A DNA stretch of 64,000 nt from an uncultured Candidatus Saccharibacteria bacterium (lineage in GTDB: Bacteria; Patescibacteriota; Minisyncoccia; Portnoybacterales; UBA2143), in contig CAZQUN010000003.1 of the NCBI GenBank assembly GCA_964596615.1, positions 2,550 through 66,549 on the forward strand, read 5' to 3'. Made by a program: the position numbers and the translations under genes. The notes beneath the pieces are model-generated. The model was given only the letters and a program-made list of their open reading frames with translations, searched no databases and had not been told where the DNA came from. Numbering within the stretch: the first letter of the stretch is position 1; each line of letters begins with the position of its first letter. Below, in pieces: positions 1-31,613 of the stretch.

Positions 1-1399
1 CCATCAACGGTTGGCCCGCCGGTTTTTTCATAAAACCAGGATATTTTTTCAGCTGAAGTCGGAAAATCAGGAAACCAATTGGCATCATGCATTGACCAGG
101 CCGTGCTGACTTTCTGGATTGGCCGGGGTGGAATAATTTTCTCATGAAGCTGACCATCAGCATTATATACCCCATCAACAAAAAGATTAGTCATTTCTCC
201 CCGGTCTAATTCCAAAAGCCCGTAGGTGCCAATAAATCCGCCGGTTGCTCTAATTTCGCTGTTATTCTGGAAAATTAAGAGGTACTGACGAGGATTATTA
301 TGTCCTAAAATCTTAAGAAAAGCAGCGGAATAATCCAGGGCTCCTTCGAGCATTTCTTCAACCAAGGGAAGTTTTTCGCCCAAGGAAACAACTTCCGGCT
401 GAATTTCATCCGGCAAAGCATCAATTTTAACCTGACGGAGTTCCTCTATGGCAACTTCAATATCTTTTAAGGCTGTTTCTAAATTACTCTGGCTCAGAGC
501 AATTTTTTCTGTTAAATATTCCTGGCCTTCTTCTTTTGAGGCCAAGACATTATCAGATGAAGGCGTTTCAATTAATTCAAATAAATTACCAAAGGAAAAT
601 AGCTGGATAGCGGAAGACAAGGTCTGGCCGGCATCAGCCAGGTTTTCCCCAACCTTAACCAAGTGACTTCCTGAAGAAACTAGGGAACCGCCCGGTAATT
701 TGCCCAAAATACCAACGGTCAGCCGGCCAAGTTTGTTAATCTCATTCTGGGTTTCCAAAAAGTCAGCATGGGCCAGATTAAAATTCTTCTCAGCTGTTTC
801 AAAATCAGCTTTTTCCAGAGATTCCTTAGCCATTAAAAGATTCTGGTAGGCAGATGAGCCACTACCTAAAACCTCATCCTTAATTTCAAGACCCTGGCTT
901 AACCAGGTGAAAATAGGGATAAGGAGGGCAATAAGAAATCCGGTTATTAAAAACCTGGGTATTGACCAAGAAGAAATTTTATCTATAACCGGTTCCTTTG
1001 ATTCAACAACTGGCTGAGGATATTCCTGAGAAGCAACCTCGGGGAAATAGAAGTCGGATGCTTCGGGATGAATTTCTTCTGGTTTTTCCTCTTTTTCTTT
1101 AACTATTTCAACCGGTTTAATTTCAGGCAAACTATCAAGGACTTCCATTTCACTCGCTAATTCTGCTATAGCTTTTTCTCTGGTCATTTCTTCTTCAAAA
1201 ACAATCCTTTCTTCTATAATCTCCCTAGCTGGCTTTATTTTAATCGCCTTTTCTTTTCTTTCAGTTTCTCCTTCTGTTTCAGCTTCTCTTAAATCAACTA
1301 ATCCTTTAACCTGCTTTATTCTTTCCACATCCAAATTCCCCCTTTCTGTAACGGGCCTGACATCAAAGAGGGCTGATGAAATGTTTATTTTCCTCCTCA
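1..1399 (-). CDS. Large membrane-anchored extracytoplasmic protein, DUF4012-like (partial; C-terminus lies beyond window start)
   Basis: Minus-strand frame is open from ATG (rc of cat at 1397-1399) to position 1. Translation begins MRRKINISSAL..., has one TM helix (FLITGFLIALLIPIFTWL) and a motif QYLLIFQNNSEIRATGGFIGTYG that resembles DUF4012 proteins. No complete minus ORF is reported here, consistent with a gene running off the edge. Confidence 0.55.
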
Positions 1400-6710: not shown

Positions 6711-7052
6711 TGTGTCCAAGCAAGCCGTAAGCCGGGTTCTGTCTTGGATAGTCATCTATCTGGGATCAATATTACTATTGACCTCAAGCGAGCTACTTTT
6801 TTCCGCCAAAGGCGGATTTGCTCTTGCACCAGGCAGGGTTTACCACGTCTCAGCATCTCTGCCGGACGAGAGGAGTTAATCCTCACTTTTCACCTTTCCT
6901 CCCTTTAGGAGAGTACCCCTAAAGCGAAGTAGTATTGTCTCTGTGGCACTTTCCCTATTCTCACGAACGGTGGGCGTTACCCACTGCCACTTAGTGGTGC
7001 CCGGACTTTCCTCCCCCAATGGAGGGCGACTATCTAACTTACTTGGACAACT
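6711..7052 (-). ncRNA. rnpB: RNase P RNA (bacterial type A)
   Basis: Minus strand contains the universal P4 strands GGAGGAAAGTCCGGGC and ACAGAACCCGGCTTA. P1 helix: 5' TTGTCCAAGTAAG pairs with 3' CTTGCTTGGACA. No ORF over this stretch. Confidence 0.85.
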
Positions 7053-7057
7053 CCATT

Positions 7058-7086
7058 CTATCATAAATATCGCTTTTGTCAATATT
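7058..7086 (-). promoter_or_regulatory. Sigma70-like promoter for rnpB (TTGACA-16-TAGAAT)
   Basis: Minus strand: TTGACAaaagcgatatttatgaTAGAAT, about 7 nt upstream of the predicted P1 5' end. Confidence 0.5.
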
Positions 7087-13523: not shown

Positions 13524-14286
13524 ATTTCCCTCTAATTAAATTCCATTTAATCTTAAAAAGTTCTTTAAAAGTATTCAAATATCCTTTTAAATTAACCCGG
13601 CTGTCAGGAGAATTTATCCAATTAACCGGAATTATTCCAATCTTGTATCCTAGTTTCCTGGCTAGAGCCAGGGATTCAATATCAAAACCCCAGCGGTCAA
13701 TTTTAAGTCGGGAAAAAATATCTTCGGTTGCCTTTTGGCTAAAAGCCTTGAATCCGCACTGGGTATCCCAGATTCCCGGTACCGCTACTAATTGAATCAA
13801 AAGGTTTCCTAGATTGCCTAATTGTCTTTTAAGAAATGACTGGGGAACGGCCTGTTTCGCTTCTTTGGCATCTTTTTTATCCCGGGAGCCAATAACAATC
13901 TGATGACCTTCGTTAAAAAGGGGTATCATTTTCTCAAAATGCTCTATGGTTGTCGCATTATCAGCATCCATAAAAAGACGGATTTCTCCTTTAGCCTCCA
14001 GCATCCCCTGTTTAACAACCCAGCCTTTGCCATGATTTTTCTCGTTATCAATCAATCTCAAATTCTTAATTAATTCAGAGAATTTACGGACTATTCCGGA
14101 AGTGTTATCCGGCGAACCATCATTAACAACAACAATCTCATAACTATACTTCTGCTCGCTCAAATACTGGTCAATGTCTAATAGGGTTTTAGTAATTCTT
14201 TTTTCTTCCCGATAAGCCGGGATAACAACAGATAAATATATTTTTTTCATATCTTGTATTATACAATAGTTTCCATTAACATACAA
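13510..14286 (-). CDS. Glycosyltransferase family 2 (polyprenol-phosphate glycosyltransferase-like)
   Basis: LSVVIPAYREEKRI N-terminus and a DxD-type region (MDAD). Confidence 0.8.
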   Translation of the reverse strand: MYVNGNYCIIQDMKKIYLSVVIPAYREEKRITKTLLDIDQYLSEQKYSYEIVVVNDGSPDNTSGIVRKFSELIKNLRLIDNEKNHGKGWVVKQGMLEAKGEIRLFMDADNATTIEHFEKMIPLFNEGHQIVIGSRDKKDAKEAKQAVPQSFLKRQLGNLGNLLIQLVAVPGIWDTQCGFKAFSQKATEDIFSRLKIDRWGFDIESLALARKLGYKIGIIPVNWINSPDSRVNLKGYLNTFKELFKIKWNLIRGKYDKG

Positions 14287-14289
14287 AGC

Positions 14290-15270
14290 ATGAAATACCG
14301 TATCATCACCTATGGCTGTCAGATGAATAAGAGTGATTCTGAAAGATTAGCCGCCAAGCTGGAAAAACAAAAATATCAGTCGGCTAATATTAAATTGGCT
14401 GATTTAATTGTAATTAATATCTGTTCTGTTCGCCAATCCGCTATTGACCGGGTTTACGCTAAAATTAGGCAGTTAAACAAACAAAAACCAAAACCAAGAA
14501 TAGTTTTAACCGGCTGTATTCTGGAAAAAGATAAAAAAATCCTCAAAAACCAGGTTAATGATATTTGGCCAATTGCTGATTTTGAAGAAAAAGCTAAATG
14601 TTTTTCAGAAAAAGAAGCTTTTGTTCCGATTATGACTGGCTGTGATAATTTCTGTTCCTACTGCGCTGTTCCATATGCCCGGGGTAGAGAAAAATCCAGG
14701 AAATCTAATGAAATTATCAAAGAAATTAAAGATTTAATCAAAAAGGATTACAAGAAAATTATTCTTCTTGGTCAGAATGTTAATAGTTATTCCGACGGAA
14801 AAACTAACTTTCCAAAACTTCTTAAATTAGTTGATAACATTGAAAGTAATTTTAGGATAGAATTTATGACATCACACCCTAAAGATTTTTCAGATGAATT
14901 AATCAATGTAATTTCAAAGAGTAAAAAAATATCAAAACAGATTCATTTGCCGATTCAGTCAGGTGATAATACAATTTTAAAGAAAATGAATCGTCGATAT
15001 ACGGTTGGCAGATACAAGAATTTAATTAAAAAAATCCGGAAGAAAATTCCGAATGTTAAAATCTCAACTGACCTTATTGTCGGTTTTCCAACTGAGACAG
15101 AAAAGCAGTTTCAAAATTCCGTTAAACTGGTTAAAGAAATGAATTTCTGCCAGATTTATGTTTCTGCTTATTCCTCCCGTCCCGGCACTGCCGCCTCAGA
15201 ATTGAAAGACAATATCCCTTCGGATATAAAGAAAAAGAGAAAGACAATTCTTTTAAAAATGATTGAATAA
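14290..15270 (+). CDS. Radical SAM methylthiotransferase, MiaB/RimO-like, lacking the C-terminal TRAM domain
   Basis: MTTase N-domain (MKYRIITYGCQMN) and radical SAM CDNFCSYCAVPYARG. It ends right after the radical SAM core at ...IKKKRKTILLKMIE, so about 100 aa including the TRAM domain are absent. Start is probably the internal MKY (14290). Confidence 0.75.
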   Translation: MKYRIITYGCQMNKSDSERLAAKLEKQKYQSANIKLADLIVINICSVRQSAIDRVYAKIRQLNKQKPKPRIVLTGCILEKDKKILKNQVNDIWPIADFEEKAKCFSEKEAFVPIMTGCDNFCSYCAVPYARGREKSRKSNEIIKEIKDLIKKDYKKIILLGQNVNSYSDGKTNFPKLLKLVDNIESNFRIEFMTSHPKDFSDELINVISKSKKISKQIHLPIQSGDNTILKKMNRRYTVGRYKNLIKKIRKKIPNVKISTDLIVGFPTETEKQFQNSVKLVKEMNFCQIYVSAYSSRPGTAASELKDNIPSDIKKKRKTILLKMIE

Positions 15271-15282
15271 AAAAAGAAAGGG

Positions 15283-15330
15283 CGTCCACTTTCTTCTTTA
15301 CGAAAATGGAGCCCTTTGCCCACTTAAAGA
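15283..15330. terminator. Bidirectional hairpin terminator between the miaB-like gene (+) and the small Thr/Pro ORF (-)
   Basis: GGGCgTCCA ...18-nt loop... TGGAGCCC, flanked by an A-run upstream and T-rich sequence downstream. Confidence 0.45.
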
Positions 15331-15332
15331 GT

Positions 15333-15467
15333 TTACCCTGAGTCGCGGGTAGTATCCGTCGATGTGGTCGGCGTCGTTGTTGTTGCCGTCGTGGTTGTCG
15401 GGGTTGTCGACGTCTTGGTGCCCTTTTTGCCTGTCCGCTCGGTATTCTTGGTATGATGCTCGGTCAT
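15333..15467 (-). CDS. Small Thr/Pro-rich peptide (44 aa), GC-rich, hypothetical
   Basis: Minus strand has a perfect SD AAGGAGG 6 nt before the ATG. Peptide: MTEHHTKNTERTGKKGTKTSTTPTTTTATTTTPTTSTDTTRDSG. Local GC is far above the surrounding sequence. A TTGACA-17-TAGTAT promoter lies upstream at 15550-15578. Confidence 0.45.
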   Translation of the reverse strand: MTEHHTKNTERTGKKGTKTSTTPTTTTATTTTPTTSTDTTRDSG

Positions 15468-15549
15468 GGTGTCCTCCTTTATTGTGAAGTACGTTACGGC
15501 GAAAATTCGCTAAACCAAACCTAGAAAGAACTAATACAAACTTATACTT

Positions 15550-15593
15550 ATACTACTATCCCCAAAAATCCATGTCAAAGGAACTTATCCACA
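15550..15593 (-). promoter_or_regulatory. Repeat module copy 1: sigma70-like promoter (TTGACA-17-TAGTAT) with adjacent TTATCCACA box
   Basis: Plus strand ccATGTCAAAGGAACTTATCCACAcc. Its reverse complement gives TGTGGATAA followed by TTGACA. It is 23/24 nt identical to copy 2. Confidence 0.5.
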
Positions 15594-15599
15594 CCTTAT

Positions 15600-15640
15600 A
15601 AAAAGAGAGGGCGCCATTGTTTCGCAACAGCGCCTCGTCA
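15600..15640 (-). terminator. Rho-independent terminator of the 21-aa ORF unit
   Basis: Minus strand GAGGCGC tgttgcgaaacaatg GCGCCCTC followed by TCTTTTT. Confidence 0.5.
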
Positions 15641-15720
15641 AACTAGTTGGCATGTACTAGGAGCACCGCGACCCCGGGCACTCTACCTGCCCATACCCGT
15701 ATTTGAGTCCCGTATTTGAG

Positions 15721-15786
15721 TCAAAAGTGGGTTTCATCCATGCGATCGTCGCCAGCATTTACCAACAGAACTAAAAGCTTCTTCAT
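15721..15786 (-). CDS. Very small ORF (21 aa, MKKLLVLLVNAGDDRMDETHF) with a strong SD
   Basis: AAGGAGG 7 nt upstream of the ATG on the minus strand. Followed by a tandem 13-bp repeat (actcaaatacggg x2) and a terminator. Confidence 0.35.
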   Translation of the reverse strand: MKKLLVLLVNAGDDRMDETHF

Positions 15787-15843
15787 TTTGACACCTCCTT
15801 GGTTAGGGGAGAATAAAAAAACACCGAAGAGCTTCCTTAATTA

Positions 15844-15886
15844 AATCATATCATTACTTAACTCCATGTCAAAGAAACTTATCCAC
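15844..15886 (-). promoter_or_regulatory. Repeat module copy 2: sigma70-like promoter (TTGACA-16-TATGAT) with adjacent TTATCCACA box
   Basis: Plus strand ccATGTCAAAGAAACTTATCCACAga. Shares about 45 nt of similarity with copy 1, including the flanking tAAAAAGA(r)GCGCC. Confidence 0.5.
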
Positions 15887-15894
15887 AGAATAAA

Positions 15895-16080
15895 AAGAAG
15901 CGCCGGGTTTAATATATCTTAATGATAAATGACGCTTTAAATTTGCAACCCTATTGGAAAGCGGGGTTACGGCTGCGCAAAAAAAATAAGGTTCTATGTT
16001 TTTCGAGAGCGGAATTCCGCTCTCATTGGTCCAAAGGGACCAATAAAGAAACAACAATGAAAGAACTCGATAATTAAATC
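15895..16080 (-). ncRNA. Candidate small non-coding RNA transcribed from repeat module copy 3
   Basis: Downstream of the perfect TTGACA-16-TATAAT promoter. No SD-preceded ORF. Perfect hairpins GGTCCctttGGACC and GAGAGCGGaattCCGCTCTC. T8 run. Confidence 0.3.
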
Positions 16081-16081
16081 C

Positions 16082-16127
16082 ATTATATAGATTCTAAACC
16101 TTATGTCAAGAAAAATTCATCCACATA
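16082..16127 (-). promoter_or_regulatory. Repeat module copy 3: perfect consensus sigma70 promoter (TTGACA-16-TATAAT) overlapping the miaA start codon; degenerate TCATCCACA box
   Basis: Reverse complement of 16082-16109 gives TTGACAtaaggtttagaatctaTATAAT. The miaA ATG (16103-16105) overlaps the -35 hexamer. Confidence 0.5.
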
Positions 16128-17023
16128 ATAGGTTAATTGTTATTCTCGGACCGACTGCTTCGGGCAAGTCATCTTTGGCTGTTAAATTAGCCAAAGAATT
16201 TAATGGTGAAATTATTTCAGCCGATTCAAGACAAATCTACAAGGAAATGGATATTGGTACGGCTAAAATTACCAAAAAAGAAATGGATGGCATTTCCCAT
16301 TATTTAATAGATATTGTTAAACCCAATCAAGGCTTTACTTTAGCCCAATACAAAAGAGAAGCGATAAAGATTATTAAAGATATTCAAAAAAAAGAAAAAC
16401 TTCCCTTTTTGGTTGGCGGCACCGGTTTATACATCCAATCAATTGTTGATAATCTGGAAATTCCTCAAGTTAAACCTGATAAAAAATTAAGAGAAAAACT
16501 GGAAAAGCAAGATACAAATGATTTATTCAGGCAATTAAAAAAACTGGATCCGGAGAGTATTCAATTTATTGACCGGAATAACAAAAGAAGAATTATCCGG
16601 GCCTTAGAAGTCTGTTTTTTGACACAAAAACCGTTTTCAAAGCAAAGAAAAAGAGGCCAACCTATATTTGATGTTTTACAGATCGGCATTAATGTTGAAA
16701 AAAATGAATTAGAAAAGAGAACAGAGAAAAGAACAGAAGAAATGATAAAGGAAGGTCTGGTTGAAGAAGTTAAAAAACTTCTTGAAAAATACAACCCTGA
16801 CCTCCCTTGTTTTAGCGGAATCGGCTATCAAGAGATAATTCCCTATCTTAAAGGAGAAATATCTCTTGATAAAGCCAAGGAGCTCATTGCCCGACATACC
16901 CGCCAGTATGCTAAAAAGCAAATGGTTTGGTTTAAGCGGGATAAGCGCATTCATTGGGTAAAGAGTTATCCCCAAGTAAAGAAATCAACCGAAAAATTCT
17001 TGTCTGGCGAGACGCTCTGCTGA
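16103..17023 (+). CDS. miaA: tRNA dimethylallyltransferase (tRNA isopentenyltransferase)
   Basis: P-loop LIVILGPTASGKSSLAV, IISADSRQIYKEMDIGTAK, LVGGTGLYIQS, RQYAKKQMVWFKR. No SD upstream of the ATG. Confidence 0.85.
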   Translation: MSRKIHPHNRLIVILGPTASGKSSLAVKLAKEFNGEIISADSRQIYKEMDIGTAKITKKEMDGISHYLIDIVKPNQGFTLAQYKREAIKIIKDIQKKEKLPFLVGGTGLYIQSIVDNLEIPQVKPDKKLREKLEKQDTNDLFRQLKKLDPESIQFIDRNNKRRIIRALEVCFLTQKPFSKQRKRGQPIFDVLQIGINVEKNELEKRTEKRTEEMIKEGLVEEVKKLLEKYNPDLPCFSGIGYQEIIPYLKGEISLDKAKELIARHTRQYAKKQMVWFKRDKRIHWVKSYPQVKKSTEKFLSGETLC

Positions 17024-17404
17024 AATAATTACTTTTTCGATGTCTGCCAACGAAGAAGATTCCAATTCACACTTTTTAGCCCTGAATGGTAAAATTGTCT
17101 CCAGGATATCCTCGATACAATAATATCTTCTGTCAACAGGATAACCGAGTTTCCGGTGTGAACAGAAGACGCATGACTTTATAGATGGTTTTTGAGGAGC
17201 AAAACACTCCAATCCGCCCTTGTTTAAAGCGAGACGCTTTACAGCACATTTTTCTCTGTTTAAGCACCATTCTTTCAAAAGAACCATACATAACCGGTGA
17301 AGTTGTACACCCTGTGCAATTTTCTCTATTCGCCTTTGGTCTGGCCAAGAACCCATTGGCTTGCCTTTTTCTAGGTCTAATATAATGTCGTGCGATTTTG
17401 GCAT
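16985..17404 (-). CDS. Hypothetical Cys-rich protein (139 aa)
   Basis: SD AAGGAGG on the minus strand. Seven Cys residues in CxnC clusters. Overlaps the miaA 3' end by 39 nt. No family recognised. Confidence 0.45.
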   Translation of the reverse strand: MPKSHDIILDLEKGKPMGSWPDQRRIEKIAQGVQLHRLCMVLLKEWCLNREKCAVKRLALNKGGLECFAPQKPSIKSCVFCSHRKLGYPVDRRYYCIEDILETILPFRAKKCELESSSLADIEKVIISAERLARQEFFG

Positions 17405-29844: not shown

Positions 29845-30678
29845 ATGCCAATAAAAGTAAATAACAAAATTATTGCCATATATGGACCAACGATTTCCAA
29901 GAAAACTGGTCTGGCCGTTGATATTGCTAAATATGTTTGGGGAAAATATAATATTGAACCCGAGCTTATTTCAGCTGATTCAAGAAAAATCTACAAAGAT
30001 TTAACTATCGGACAAGTTCCTATTTGGGCACCTTATGATGGAAAAATTAAAGTCCATATGTTCAAATTTATTGATTCTTTGGAGGAATCTTTTAGTCTTT
30101 ACGGTTACAAGACTAAAACAGAAGAAATAATTGACCAGATTCATAGAAAGAATCATTTACCGATACTTTTCGGCGGAAGCGCTGTATATATTTCATCTAT
30201 ACTTGAAAATTGGAATGTGCCTGAAGATTACAATTCCGGCACGAATCACAAAAATAAGTTTGGCAAATCAAAACCCAAATATGAATATATTATCCTGATA
30301 CCAAAAACTAGAAAAACAATTCTTTTTAAAAAGATCAAAGAACATGTTGAAGAAAATTTTAGAGCTGGAATTTTAGAAGAATTAAAAAGATTAGTTAAAA
30401 AATATCAAATTAATCCGCTATCTCCTCCGACAGATAATATGTTATATAAATCCCTAGAATACAGAGAGTTTTTAGAATATTGTTTCAGAAATAAGAAAAA
30501 ACTAGAAGAATTAGACAAGAAAGATTTGAGGATAATAAAAATAAGTTCGGTCAGTAATCTAAAGAATTTTGCCAGAAGACAACTAAGATGGATTCCTAAG
30601 ATGGAGGGTAAAAAATACTTAGTTGAAAATTACCAAGAAGGAAGAGAAATTGTTGATGAATTCTTAAATCGAGATTAA
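29845..30678 (+). CDS. Isopentenyltransferase (IPT/MiaA) family paralog with degenerate P-loop
   Basis: IIAIYGPTISKKTGLAVDIA (Walker A second Gly replaced by Lys), ISADSRKIYKDLTIGQ, LFGGSAVYISSILENWNVP, RRQLRWIPK. Collinear with MiaA motifs but strongly diverged; 277 aa. Confidence 0.65.
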   Translation: MPIKVNNKIIAIYGPTISKKTGLAVDIAKYVWGKYNIEPELISADSRKIYKDLTIGQVPIWAPYDGKIKVHMFKFIDSLEESFSLYGYKTKTEEIIDQIHRKNHLPILFGGSAVYISSILENWNVPEDYNSGTNHKNKFGKSKPKYEYIILIPKTRKTILFKKIKEHVEENFRAGILEELKRLVKKYQINPLSPPTDNMLYKSLEYREFLEYCFRNKKKLEELDKKDLRIIKISSVSNLKNFARRQLRWIPKMEGKKYLVENYQEGREIVDEFLNRD

Positions 30679-31418: not shown

Positions 31419-31442
31419 TAAAAAAACTGGCCTGAGAGCCAG
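31419..31442 (-). terminator. Rho-independent terminator downstream of the gatCA-membrane protein operon
   Basis: Minus strand CTGGC tctcag GCCAG followed by T8. Confidence 0.55.
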
Positions 31443-31613
31443 TCCTTTGAAATAACTATCTAAACCTTAATCAAAAAGACCGACTCTCACAACCAGTAAA
31501 AAAGAACCAAAAATAGTTTTGGCTGAAATTATTAATCCGGCTGAAAGAATTGGTTTTTATCATGATAACTAATTTTAACTAATTAAGAAAGTTTGTCAAA
31601 TGAGATATCCACA

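Follow-up and report, generated by a model that had tools for sequence, protein, structure and literature searches.

A predicted structured small RNA and lineage-specific copies of its promoter module in the miaB-miaA spacer of a Patescibacteria genome

The subject of this analysis is the spacer between a miaB-like gene and miaA in a stretch of 64,000 nucleotides from an uncultured bacterium of the Patescibacteria (CPR) close to Portnoybacteria (contig CAZQUN010000003.1, positions 2,550 to 66,549), which is called the window below and to which all coordinates refer unless a relative is named. The spacer is 832 bp long and lies between the gene of a MiaB-like radical-SAM methylthiotransferase (14254-15270, plus strand) and that of the tRNA dimethylallyltransferase MiaA (16103-17023, plus strand; Pfam IPPT, 4e-84), which has no Shine-Dalgarno (SD) sequence upstream. 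The gene order GalT, GT2, MiaB-like, MiaA, GatB is kept in relatives, and two Logan contigs were 100% identical to the window. No tRNA or transfer-messenger RNA was found in the spacer and its longest open reading frame (ORF) is at most 62 amino acids. Segments of it are GC-rich, as an earlier note on this DNA had observed, with local GC reaching 0.54-0.58 in 100-nt windows of the array against about 0.38 in the whole window. What fills the spacer is an array of three short minus-strand units, each of them headed by a copy of the same promoter module; the unit next to miaA is a predicted structured small RNA (sRNA) that recurs in other lineages, and the two remaining units are probably later, lineage-specific additions.

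A consensus scan returned three predicted minus-strand promoters of the sigma-70 type, at 16109 (12/12 matches, TTGACA-16-TATAAT), at 15872 (11/12, TTGACA-16-TATGAT with a TG extension) and at 15578 (10/12, TTGACA-17-TAGTAT). All three have TTGACA- and TATAAT-like hexamers at a distance within the 16-18 nt usual for this type, they were the top three consensus matches in the 1.8-kb region, and the 12/12 site was the sole perfect match in the 64-kb window. The sequence TGTGGAT(A/G)A stands 6-7 nt upstream of each -35 hexamer; its reverse complement corresponds to TTATCCACA, the consensus of high-affinity DnaA boxes. Module 1 (15550-15593) thus consists of the box TGTGGATAA at 15585-15593, 6 nt, TTGACA at 15573-15578, 17 nt and TAGTAT at 15550-15555, while module 2 (15845-15887) has the box TGTGGATAA at 15879-15887, 6 nt, TTGACA at 15867-15872, 16 nt including the TG and TATGAT at 15845-15850, both on the minus strand. 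The 22-mer TGTGGATAAGTTyCTTTGACAT common to these two was found on the minus strand at 15572-15593 and at 15866-15887 and nowhere else in the window; 0.04 would be expected by chance, and two occurrences were reached by none of 100 shuffles. A third, diverged copy, module 3 (16082-16125, minus strand), combines the box TGTGGATGA at 16117-16125, 7 nt, TTGACA at 16104-16109, 16 nt and TATAAT at 16082-16087, and its box and -35 segment at 16103-16125 overlaps the ATG of miaA. The start-to-start spacings of the modules are 294 and 238 bp. Each of the three units is closed by a GC-rich hairpin followed by a T run, as seen in a terminator scan for unit 2 and in folds for units 1 and 3. The claim of the earlier note that a minus-strand promoter module recurs three times, with copies 1 and 2 nearly identical and copy 3 diverged, and that each copy heads a short unit, is borne out by the consensus scan, the ORFs and the terminators.

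The RNase P RNA gene and a tRNA-Met gene of the same window also sit behind near-consensus promoters, so that the promoter type of the array plausibly works in this organism. The former is a bacterial RNase P RNA of class A (222 bits; 6713-7045, minus strand), and its promoter, TTGACA-16-TAGAAT, was located at 7082.

Unit 3 (15893-16076, minus strand) was studied by folding, homologue searches, a covariance model and analysis of helix-arm covariation, and corresponds to a predicted structured sRNA of about 185 nt. In order, it comprises a U-rich 5' tail, the adjacent hairpins H1 (GGTCC/GGACC) and H2 (GAGAGCGG/CCGCTCTC), the linker AAAAACAUAGAA, the helix P3 (GTAACC/GGTTGC in the window) around CCGCUUCCAAUAG, and a terminator (AAGCGTC...GGCGCTT and a T run) whose loop measures 27-31 nt across homologues. 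The segments AAAAACAUAGAA and CCGCUUCCAAUAG are conserved and unpaired, and the z-score of the fold was -3.9. Homologues were found at the same site in seven other lineages of Patescibacteria (L163, L165, L170, L171, L172, L175 and L178), whose MiaA proteins are 61-71% identical to that of the window and where the sRNA fills the miaB-miaA gap of 195-227 bp on the minus strand. The covariance model scored the eight sRNAs at 150-209 bits and everything else in 599 kb of related loci and window at 23 bits or less. In the hand-extracted arms of four helices, base pairing was kept in 96.9% of the 224 cells, and compensatory changes affecting both sides occurred in 13 of the 28 pairs. The terminator stem of unit 3 covaries too, and P3 is found in three versions (CAGGAC/GTCCTG, GTAACC/GGTTGC and GGA(G)CCC/GGGTCC). 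None of 500 column shuffles reached the observed pairing values, and a control in which the pairing partners were slid gave 19-44% paired cells. There were 14 G-U cells when the minus strand was read and 4 when the plus strand was read, an excess which fits the orientation given by the promoter and the terminator of the sRNA.

No SD sequence was seen ahead of unit 3, where a conserved ORF was not systematically searched for. Rfam 15 (4227 covariance models) was run with a permissive E-value on the spacer and two homologues and with the gathering threshold on the window and 12 relatives, and no family reached its gathering score in the spacer or the homologues; the chance matches below threshold belonged to unrelated families, and the one weak match that recurred covered the terminator hairpin only. 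Literature searches returned no description of such an RNA, nor of any regulatory RNA in Patescibacteria. A pseudoknot, AGCG:CGCT, is possible in the sRNA, and since the positions are nearly invariant it has no support from covariation. As judged from its conservation in eight lineages and its covarying helices, unit 3 is a conserved structured non-coding RNA and forms a new sRNA family, which upholds the earlier suggestion of a non-coding RNA at this place.

The promoter of the sRNA is embedded in miaA, its -35 hexamer and box lying inside codons 1-8, so that the N-terminus MSRKIHPH of the window MiaA is encoded by antisense promoter sequence; the position of the third promoter on the miaA ATG had been pointed out before. 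In all these genomes the -35 is complementary to the miaA start (ATG/GTG-TCA-A), and the box to nnT-TAT-CCA-CA, the codons for MiaA residues 5-8, x-Tyr-Pro-His/Gln. Orthologous box-promoters were found at the miaA start in 10 relatives. The 9-mer is perfect in modules 1 and 2 and in the promoters of 9 relatives and has one mismatch in module 3, L173 and L222; 11 of 13 promoter copies agree with TTATCCACA at 9/9 bases. In 608 kb, 14 combinations of box and promoter were counted against a mean of 0.8 for scrambled boxes, and most of the 14 are orthologues. The box is constrained as DNA and not as peptide, because TGTGGATAA is kept in two reading frames of miaA (T-TAT-CCA-CA for Tyr-Pro-His and CTT-ATC-CAC-A for Leu-Ile-His in L003), any of the four bases T, C, G and A can come next to it (for His or Gln), the codon preceding it is that of Ile, Ser or Gly with a third base that is always T, and the box is intact in both non-coding copies of the window. 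The 6-7 nt separating box and -35 are not conserved among lineages. A conserved plus-strand promoter of miaA within the sRNA gene was considered and rejected; only a weak GATAAT-like -10 recurs about 25-30 nt before the ATG, without a -35.

Comparison of the relatives indicates that the site behaves as a slot with variable cargo. The spacer of close relatives ranges from a 4-bp gene overlap up to 832 bp, and in the 11 sampled lineages with a MiaA of the YP(H/Q) type the box-promoter was present in 11/11 and the sRNA in 8/11. Other cargo stands behind the miaA-start promoter in L173 (a 29-amino-acid ORF with an SD), in L176 (other ORFs) and in L222, where at least 770 bp hold two minus-strand units, the first with small ORFs and the other a hairpin-rich RNA behind an 11/12 promoter. 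Multi-unit spacers are therefore not unique to the window genome. On this comparison of sequences the promoter, not the cargo, is the conserved element of the slot.

In L222 (positions 1-815, minus strand) and L173 (2278-2540, minus strand) the box at the miaA start is TGGGGATAA, and their promoters head small ORFs preceded by an SD, MTVQNGCVEVCQLPFNVGFY and MLVQNFQIFLNMNPLFNV..., with a common block CACTCAAC in the 5' untranslated region (5'-UTR); the second promoter-headed unit of L222, of about 170 nt, was placed at L222:245. The shared MxVQN start and the 5'-UTR block would suggest homology of these two ORFs, which is not established, BLASTP having found nothing. Outside the YP(H/Q) group, the spacers of L008 and L005 hold hairpin-rich minus-strand sequence. 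In case of L008, a Portnoybacteria metagenome-assembled genome, a 12/12 promoter is followed by about 280 nt of GC- and hairpin-rich sequence and a terminator (L008:3560-3883, minus strand) with no Rfam hit, and this sequence may be another non-coding RNA. L010 has an ORF resembling a membrane protein behind a TTGACA that overlaps the miaA start.

Unit 1 contains an ORF for 44 amino acids, called p44 here (15333-15467, minus strand; MTEHHTKNTERTGKKGTKTSTTPTTTTATTTTPTTSTDTTRDSG), which is rich in Thr and Pro and is preceded by the SD AAGGAGG at 15473-15479 and by a conserved 5'-UTR hairpin at 15498-15510. Its terminator (15268-15317, minus strand), found by folding, consists of the long hairpin AAAGGGCTCCA...TGGACGCCCTTT with a T run behind it and abuts the stop codon of the miaB-like gene. 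A p44 homologue was found in the closest relative, L003, only. The homologue keeps the start (ATG-ACC-GA), the SD, the stop (TCA-GGG-TAA), the 5'-UTR hairpin and the promoter; in a protein-guided alignment with the window ORF the indels are in frame and 8 differences are synonymous, and the arms of its terminator hairpin are different (AAGGGCACTCTT/AAGAGTACCCTT). As a member of a protein family p44 was rejected, with no Pfam match and none among 1.84 billion representatives, and it may be an ORF that is not translated. The body of unit 2 (15635-15839, minus strand) carries an ORF for 21 amino acids at 15721-15786 (MKKLLVLLVNAGDDRMDETHF) with an AAGGAGG SD at 15794-15800, a tandem repeat of 2x13 nt at 15696-15721 and a GC-rich 3' part. 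The terminator scan placed its terminator at 15600-15634 (minus strand; GGCGCTGTTGCGAAACAATGGCGCC then CTCTCTTTTT), with a 10-bp stem containing 6 G-C pairs and a T run. The small ORFs, their SD sequences, the tandem repeat and the unit-2 terminator had been listed in the earlier note and could be located as described.

Copies 1 and 2 of the module are identical at 21 of 22 nt across box, spacer and -35, and the terminator tail CGCCCTyTCTTTTT is found upstream of both; neither their -10 regions nor their bodies are related. Read on the plus strand, they form the miaA-like pseudo-starts MSKELIHTL* and MSKKLIHRIKRSAGFNIS* (MSKKLIHR...), both of which are real, as had been proposed. Their interpretation as duplications of the miaA 5' end is supported by L003 (MiaA 77% identical), where the MSxKLIH version is in use: this genome has one unit only, that of the p44 homologue, headed by the module TGTGGATAAGTTTCGTTGACAT, which lies across the real MiaA start (MSTKLIHN...). 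L003 does not have the sRNA. L170 is the closest relative with the sRNA, and right after its sRNA terminator, at the position of module 2, it has a lone perfect box. The MiaA N-terminus of L003 is 12 residues longer (MSTKLIHNPESSALSGINGTS...; L003:3953-4042, plus strand), and the extra 42 nt include GAGCGGAATT, a 10-mer identical to part of the hairpin H2 of the window sRNA. This 10-mer may have been left behind when an sRNA gene was deleted, which is weak evidence because the probability of a chance match is about 0.07.

From these relations the following history can be proposed. The ancestral unit would be the sRNA gene beside miaA, with a terminator that originally adjoined the miaB stop codon. 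The segment of box and -35, that is the 5' end of miaA, would have been duplicated twice in the window lineage together with part of the preceding terminator tail; the simplest history places the duplication in the lineage leading to the window and L003, after which L003 would have lost the sRNA and its duplicated pseudo-start would have been fused to miaA. The duplicated modules would now head unrelated cargo, namely the p44 unit shared with L003 and a lineage-specific unit with the 21-amino-acid ORF and a GC-rich tail. We consider this structural and evolutionary account, with three minus-strand units on one promoter module, an ancestral sRNA and promoter duplications within the lineage, to be probably correct. 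The idea of an inserted or duplicated cassette array, put forward in the earlier note, survives insofar as units 1 and 2 are lineage-specific additions; a single foreign insertion does not agree with a sRNA unit that is ancestral to a wide clade, and the mobile cassette was not supported either. Conservation of the same spacer with a truncated miaB in relatives, which had been named as a sign of ordinary regulatory sequence, was found for unit 3 and for miaB, and it was not found for units 1 and 2.

The protein encoded upstream of the array (14254-15270, with a public gene call that starts at 14290) matched Pfam UPF0004 and Radical_SAM only. The C-terminal TRAM domain which accompanies these two in MiaB is absent, as had been remarked, and the best NCBIfam equivalog, MiaB, scored 338 bits against a cut-off of 355; the protein is thus called MiaB-like. 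A TRAM-less protein of this kind (314-389 amino acids) was present in every close relative examined, whatever the length of the spacer, including L168 (MiaA 74% identical), whose miaB runs 4 bp into miaA, and L004-L007 with spacers of 55-165 bp. The distant relatives L009, L010, L011, L015, L016, L018 and L023 have a full-length MiaB of 410-453 amino acids with a TRAM-like C-terminus. Since the truncation is common to the clade and extends to genomes with nearly no spacer, it predates the array and was not caused by it, and the proposal that an insertion had truncated miaB is ruled out.

Two other coding sequences of the window may be mentioned here. A second, divergent MiaA-like gene of 277 amino acids (29845-30678, plus strand) scored 104 bits on the NCBIfam miaA model (cut-off 148) and adjoins a cluster of tRNA-Met, tRNA-Met and tRNA-Asp genes. 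The 3' end of miaA is overlapped in antisense by a Cys-rich ORF of 139 amino acids (16985-17404, minus strand) that had no match in Pfam or NCBIfam. Unannotated ORFs of 73-125 amino acids occupy the same position in L163, L165, L170, L171, L172 and L178, the region of L168 encodes a similar protein not called as a gene, and none was seen in L173, L175 and L176.

In model bacteria DnaA also regulates transcription from single boxes close to promoters. The 9-mer of the array equals the DnaA-box consensus TTATCCACA, and this is the sole reason for which DnaA is named as the candidate; we know of no other regulator with this 9-mer as its site. A DNA-binding protein, DnaA being the leading candidate, would recognise the 9-mer and co-regulate the three promoters. 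Whether it is bound at the sRNA promoter or initiating there, RNA polymerase would cover the miaA start codon, and the sRNA would be antisense across the region that any transcript running from miaB to miaA must cross; for these two reasons sRNA output and miaA expression are likely to be antagonistic. The covarying, folded core suggests that the sRNA has in addition a function of its own in trans. DnaA itself can be put forward only tentatively, with less than even confidence, as the factor that binds the box. The full scheme, in which the replication and growth state, acting through DnaA on the promoter within the start of miaA, would set the output of a Patescibacteria-specific sRNA and inversely, via promoter occlusion or antisense transcription, the capacity for tRNA i6A37 modification, and the two copied promoters would have joined a replication-coupled regulon, is speculative and quite unlikely to hold in all its parts.

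Outside the miaA locus a fourth box-promoter was noticed in the window (31440-31613, minus strand), with TGTGGATAT, 5 nt, TTGACA, 16 nt and TAAAAT directly past the stop codon of a 191-amino-acid gene. It is followed by a 30-amino-acid ORF or short transcript and the terminator CTGGC...GCCAG with T7, beyond which lie a Cys-rich ORF of 56 amino acids and an ORF of 107 amino acids, neither with a Pfam match.

A number of observations weigh against the account given above, and the rival explanations draw on several of them. In case of the sRNA, the helix arms were extracted by hand, as the two most divergent sequences came out of register both with MAFFT and with the covariance model; this extraction favours pairing, and the covariation rests on 8 sequences of which several are closely related. 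As regards units 1 and 2, the third-codon-position GC content of p44 is 0.67 compared with about 0.31 for the genes around it, ACG is used for 6 of its 21 Thr codons compared with 15 of 267 in long genes, gene callers skipped it, and no homologous protein turned up among the 1.84 billion representatives; no homologue of unit 2 was found when about 1.2 Mb of related loci were searched with blastn and nhmmer, and with a z-score of -1.2 its fold was not better than that of shuffles. These features of units 1 and 2 would fit the view that only the sRNA unit is functional, units 1 and 2 being debris of local duplication with untranslated ORFs and with promoters that are kept through recency, and the lone promoterless box of L170 resembles such decay. 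Debris would, however, hardly keep modules 1 and 2 identical at 21 of 22 nt between fully diverged flanks, each with a usable -10, SD and terminator, nor would it account for the p44 unit of L003, which retains promoter, 5'-UTR hairpin, SD, start, stop and a terminator with different arms at 77% MiaA identity. We regard it as an unlikely explanation. Another explanation would derive the array from mobile cassettes (of an integron-like kind, or miniature insertion elements) which insert at the miaA 5' end and duplicate it: the units are arranged head to tail and bounded by a repeated module of 22-45 nt, this repeat is the 5' end of the target gene, and the cargo at the same site differs by lineage. 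Against it, no integrase, transposase or attC-like imperfect palindrome was found in or beside the spacer, each unit comes with a promoter and a terminator of its own, the module is nowhere else in the window, phage and plasmid BLAST of the whole array gave low-complexity noise only, and the sRNA core had 0 matches in viral contigs. A mobile origin is thus scarcely credible.

The remaining points concern the box. The window sRNA promoter itself has the degenerate box TGTGGATGA, in contrast to the perfect boxes of modules 1 and 2. A spacing of 4, 6 or 7 nt between box and -35 is loose for a fixed activator geometry, no dnaA was present among the 16 window ORFs scanned against Pfam, and the GC skew stays negative across the window, without an origin-like switch. 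Beyond the miaA locus just two pairs of box and promoter were detected (window 31599 and L114:1905), which is about the expectation for scrambled boxes, and a wider box-promoter regulon was rejected for this reason. These data leave room for the view that the 9-mer binds another regulator or simply raises the affinity of RNA polymerase, the match to DnaA being coincidental while the sRNA and the duplicated modules stand. The relatives indeed have a single box (two in L170) and no cluster, and a box beside a -35 was not enriched in phage contigs (7 matches against 32 and 4 for scrambled boxes). This view is a serious possibility and on the whole a doubtful one, because it has to explain the agreement at 9/9 bases in 11 of 13 promoter copies, and no alternative regulator is known to us for a site of this type, which DnaA can use singly near a promoter. 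One could also suppose that selection acts on the N-terminal peptide of MiaA (x-Tyr-Pro-His) or on its mRNA, the antisense promoter and the box being by-products, since an MSxxxYP(H/Q) start occurs in 28 of the 120 closest MiaA homologue clusters and the early coding region of a gene without SD could matter for translation initiation. The same 9-mer is, however, also found in the Leu-Ile-His frame of L003 and in the two non-coding window copies, the flanking residues vary while the bases of the box do not, and in every case a -35 with a correctly spaced -10 and then a predicted terminated transcript follow. Selection on the peptide or mRNA is accordingly very improbable, and the preferred reading remains that of a box kept as DNA in the promoter of an ancestral sRNA gene.

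Several known types of system were compared with the array and rejected. A replication origin or DnaA-box cluster of the oriC, datA or DARS type does not agree with only 3 boxes (at most 1 mismatch) in 860 bp and no skew switch. An integron cassette array would need attC-like repeats and a recombinase among the neighbouring genes, neither of which was found, and its units would be promoterless. TIGR- or CRISPR-like arrays (background: PMC12045711) do not fit units of about 240-290 bp that have promoters and terminators and no short interspaced repeats. A type I toxin-antitoxin system, which would pair a small hydrophobic membrane peptide with an overlapping antisense RNA, was discarded, p44 being hydrophilic and p21, the predicted product of the 21-amino-acid ORF, having only about 9 hydrophobic residues, with no plus-strand promoter of at least 9/12 within the array.

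The ultra-small, unculturable Patescibacteria have to our knowledge yielded very few regulatory RNAs so far. The locus offers a covarying sRNA family with a fixed genomic address and a conserved candidate operator, and the MSxxxYP(H/Q) N-terminus of MiaA is a simple marker of the box-promoter at the protein level. It also provides an example in which a non-coding constraint, the antisense promoter, would dictate N-terminal residues of a housekeeping enzyme in two reading frames, and in which one promoter module is reused for unrelated small cargo. If the link to DnaA were true, tRNA modification would be coupled to the state of replication in bacteria whose regulatory repertoires are minimal.

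Among known systems, PrrF1/PrrF2 of Pseudomonas, with Fur boxes, and OmrA/OmrB of E. coli are tandem sRNA genes under a common type of regulated promoter. As in these systems, the array has adjacent short terminated units of the same orientation, each with a copy of operator and promoter from local duplication; the RNAs of those pairs are paralogous, whereas the units of the array share only the promoter module and the terminator tail and have unrelated bodies. Promoters controlled by DnaA boxes include those of sda in Bacillus subtilis and of dnaA and nrdAB in E. coli, and with these the array has in common a consensus TTATCCACA box immediately upstream of a sigma-70-type -35 and a small gene. 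It differs in having one box per promoter in place of a cluster, and this box lies inside the coding start of the divergent neighbour. The overlap of the sRNA promoter with the miaA start codon recalls overlapping divergent promoters and cis-antisense RNAs, and in most relatives the sRNA takes up the entire interval between miaB and miaA, on the strand opposite to theirs; unlike a cis-antisense RNA, it does not overlap the miaA coding sequence, and its helices covary as in a folded, trans-acting RNA. In an attenuator of the thrL type a leader peptide with a run of Thr is followed by a terminator, and the p44 ORF, too, is short, contains a run of Thr codons and has an intrinsic terminator behind it. 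This possibility was rejected, as no same-strand gene follows p44 and its terminator faces the 3' end of the convergent miaB in both the window and L003. The locus is thus best described as a new sRNA family combined with a lineage-specific promoter duplication, and it is not a new kind of system, because operator-controlled sRNA promoters and the local duplication of promoters are both familiar.

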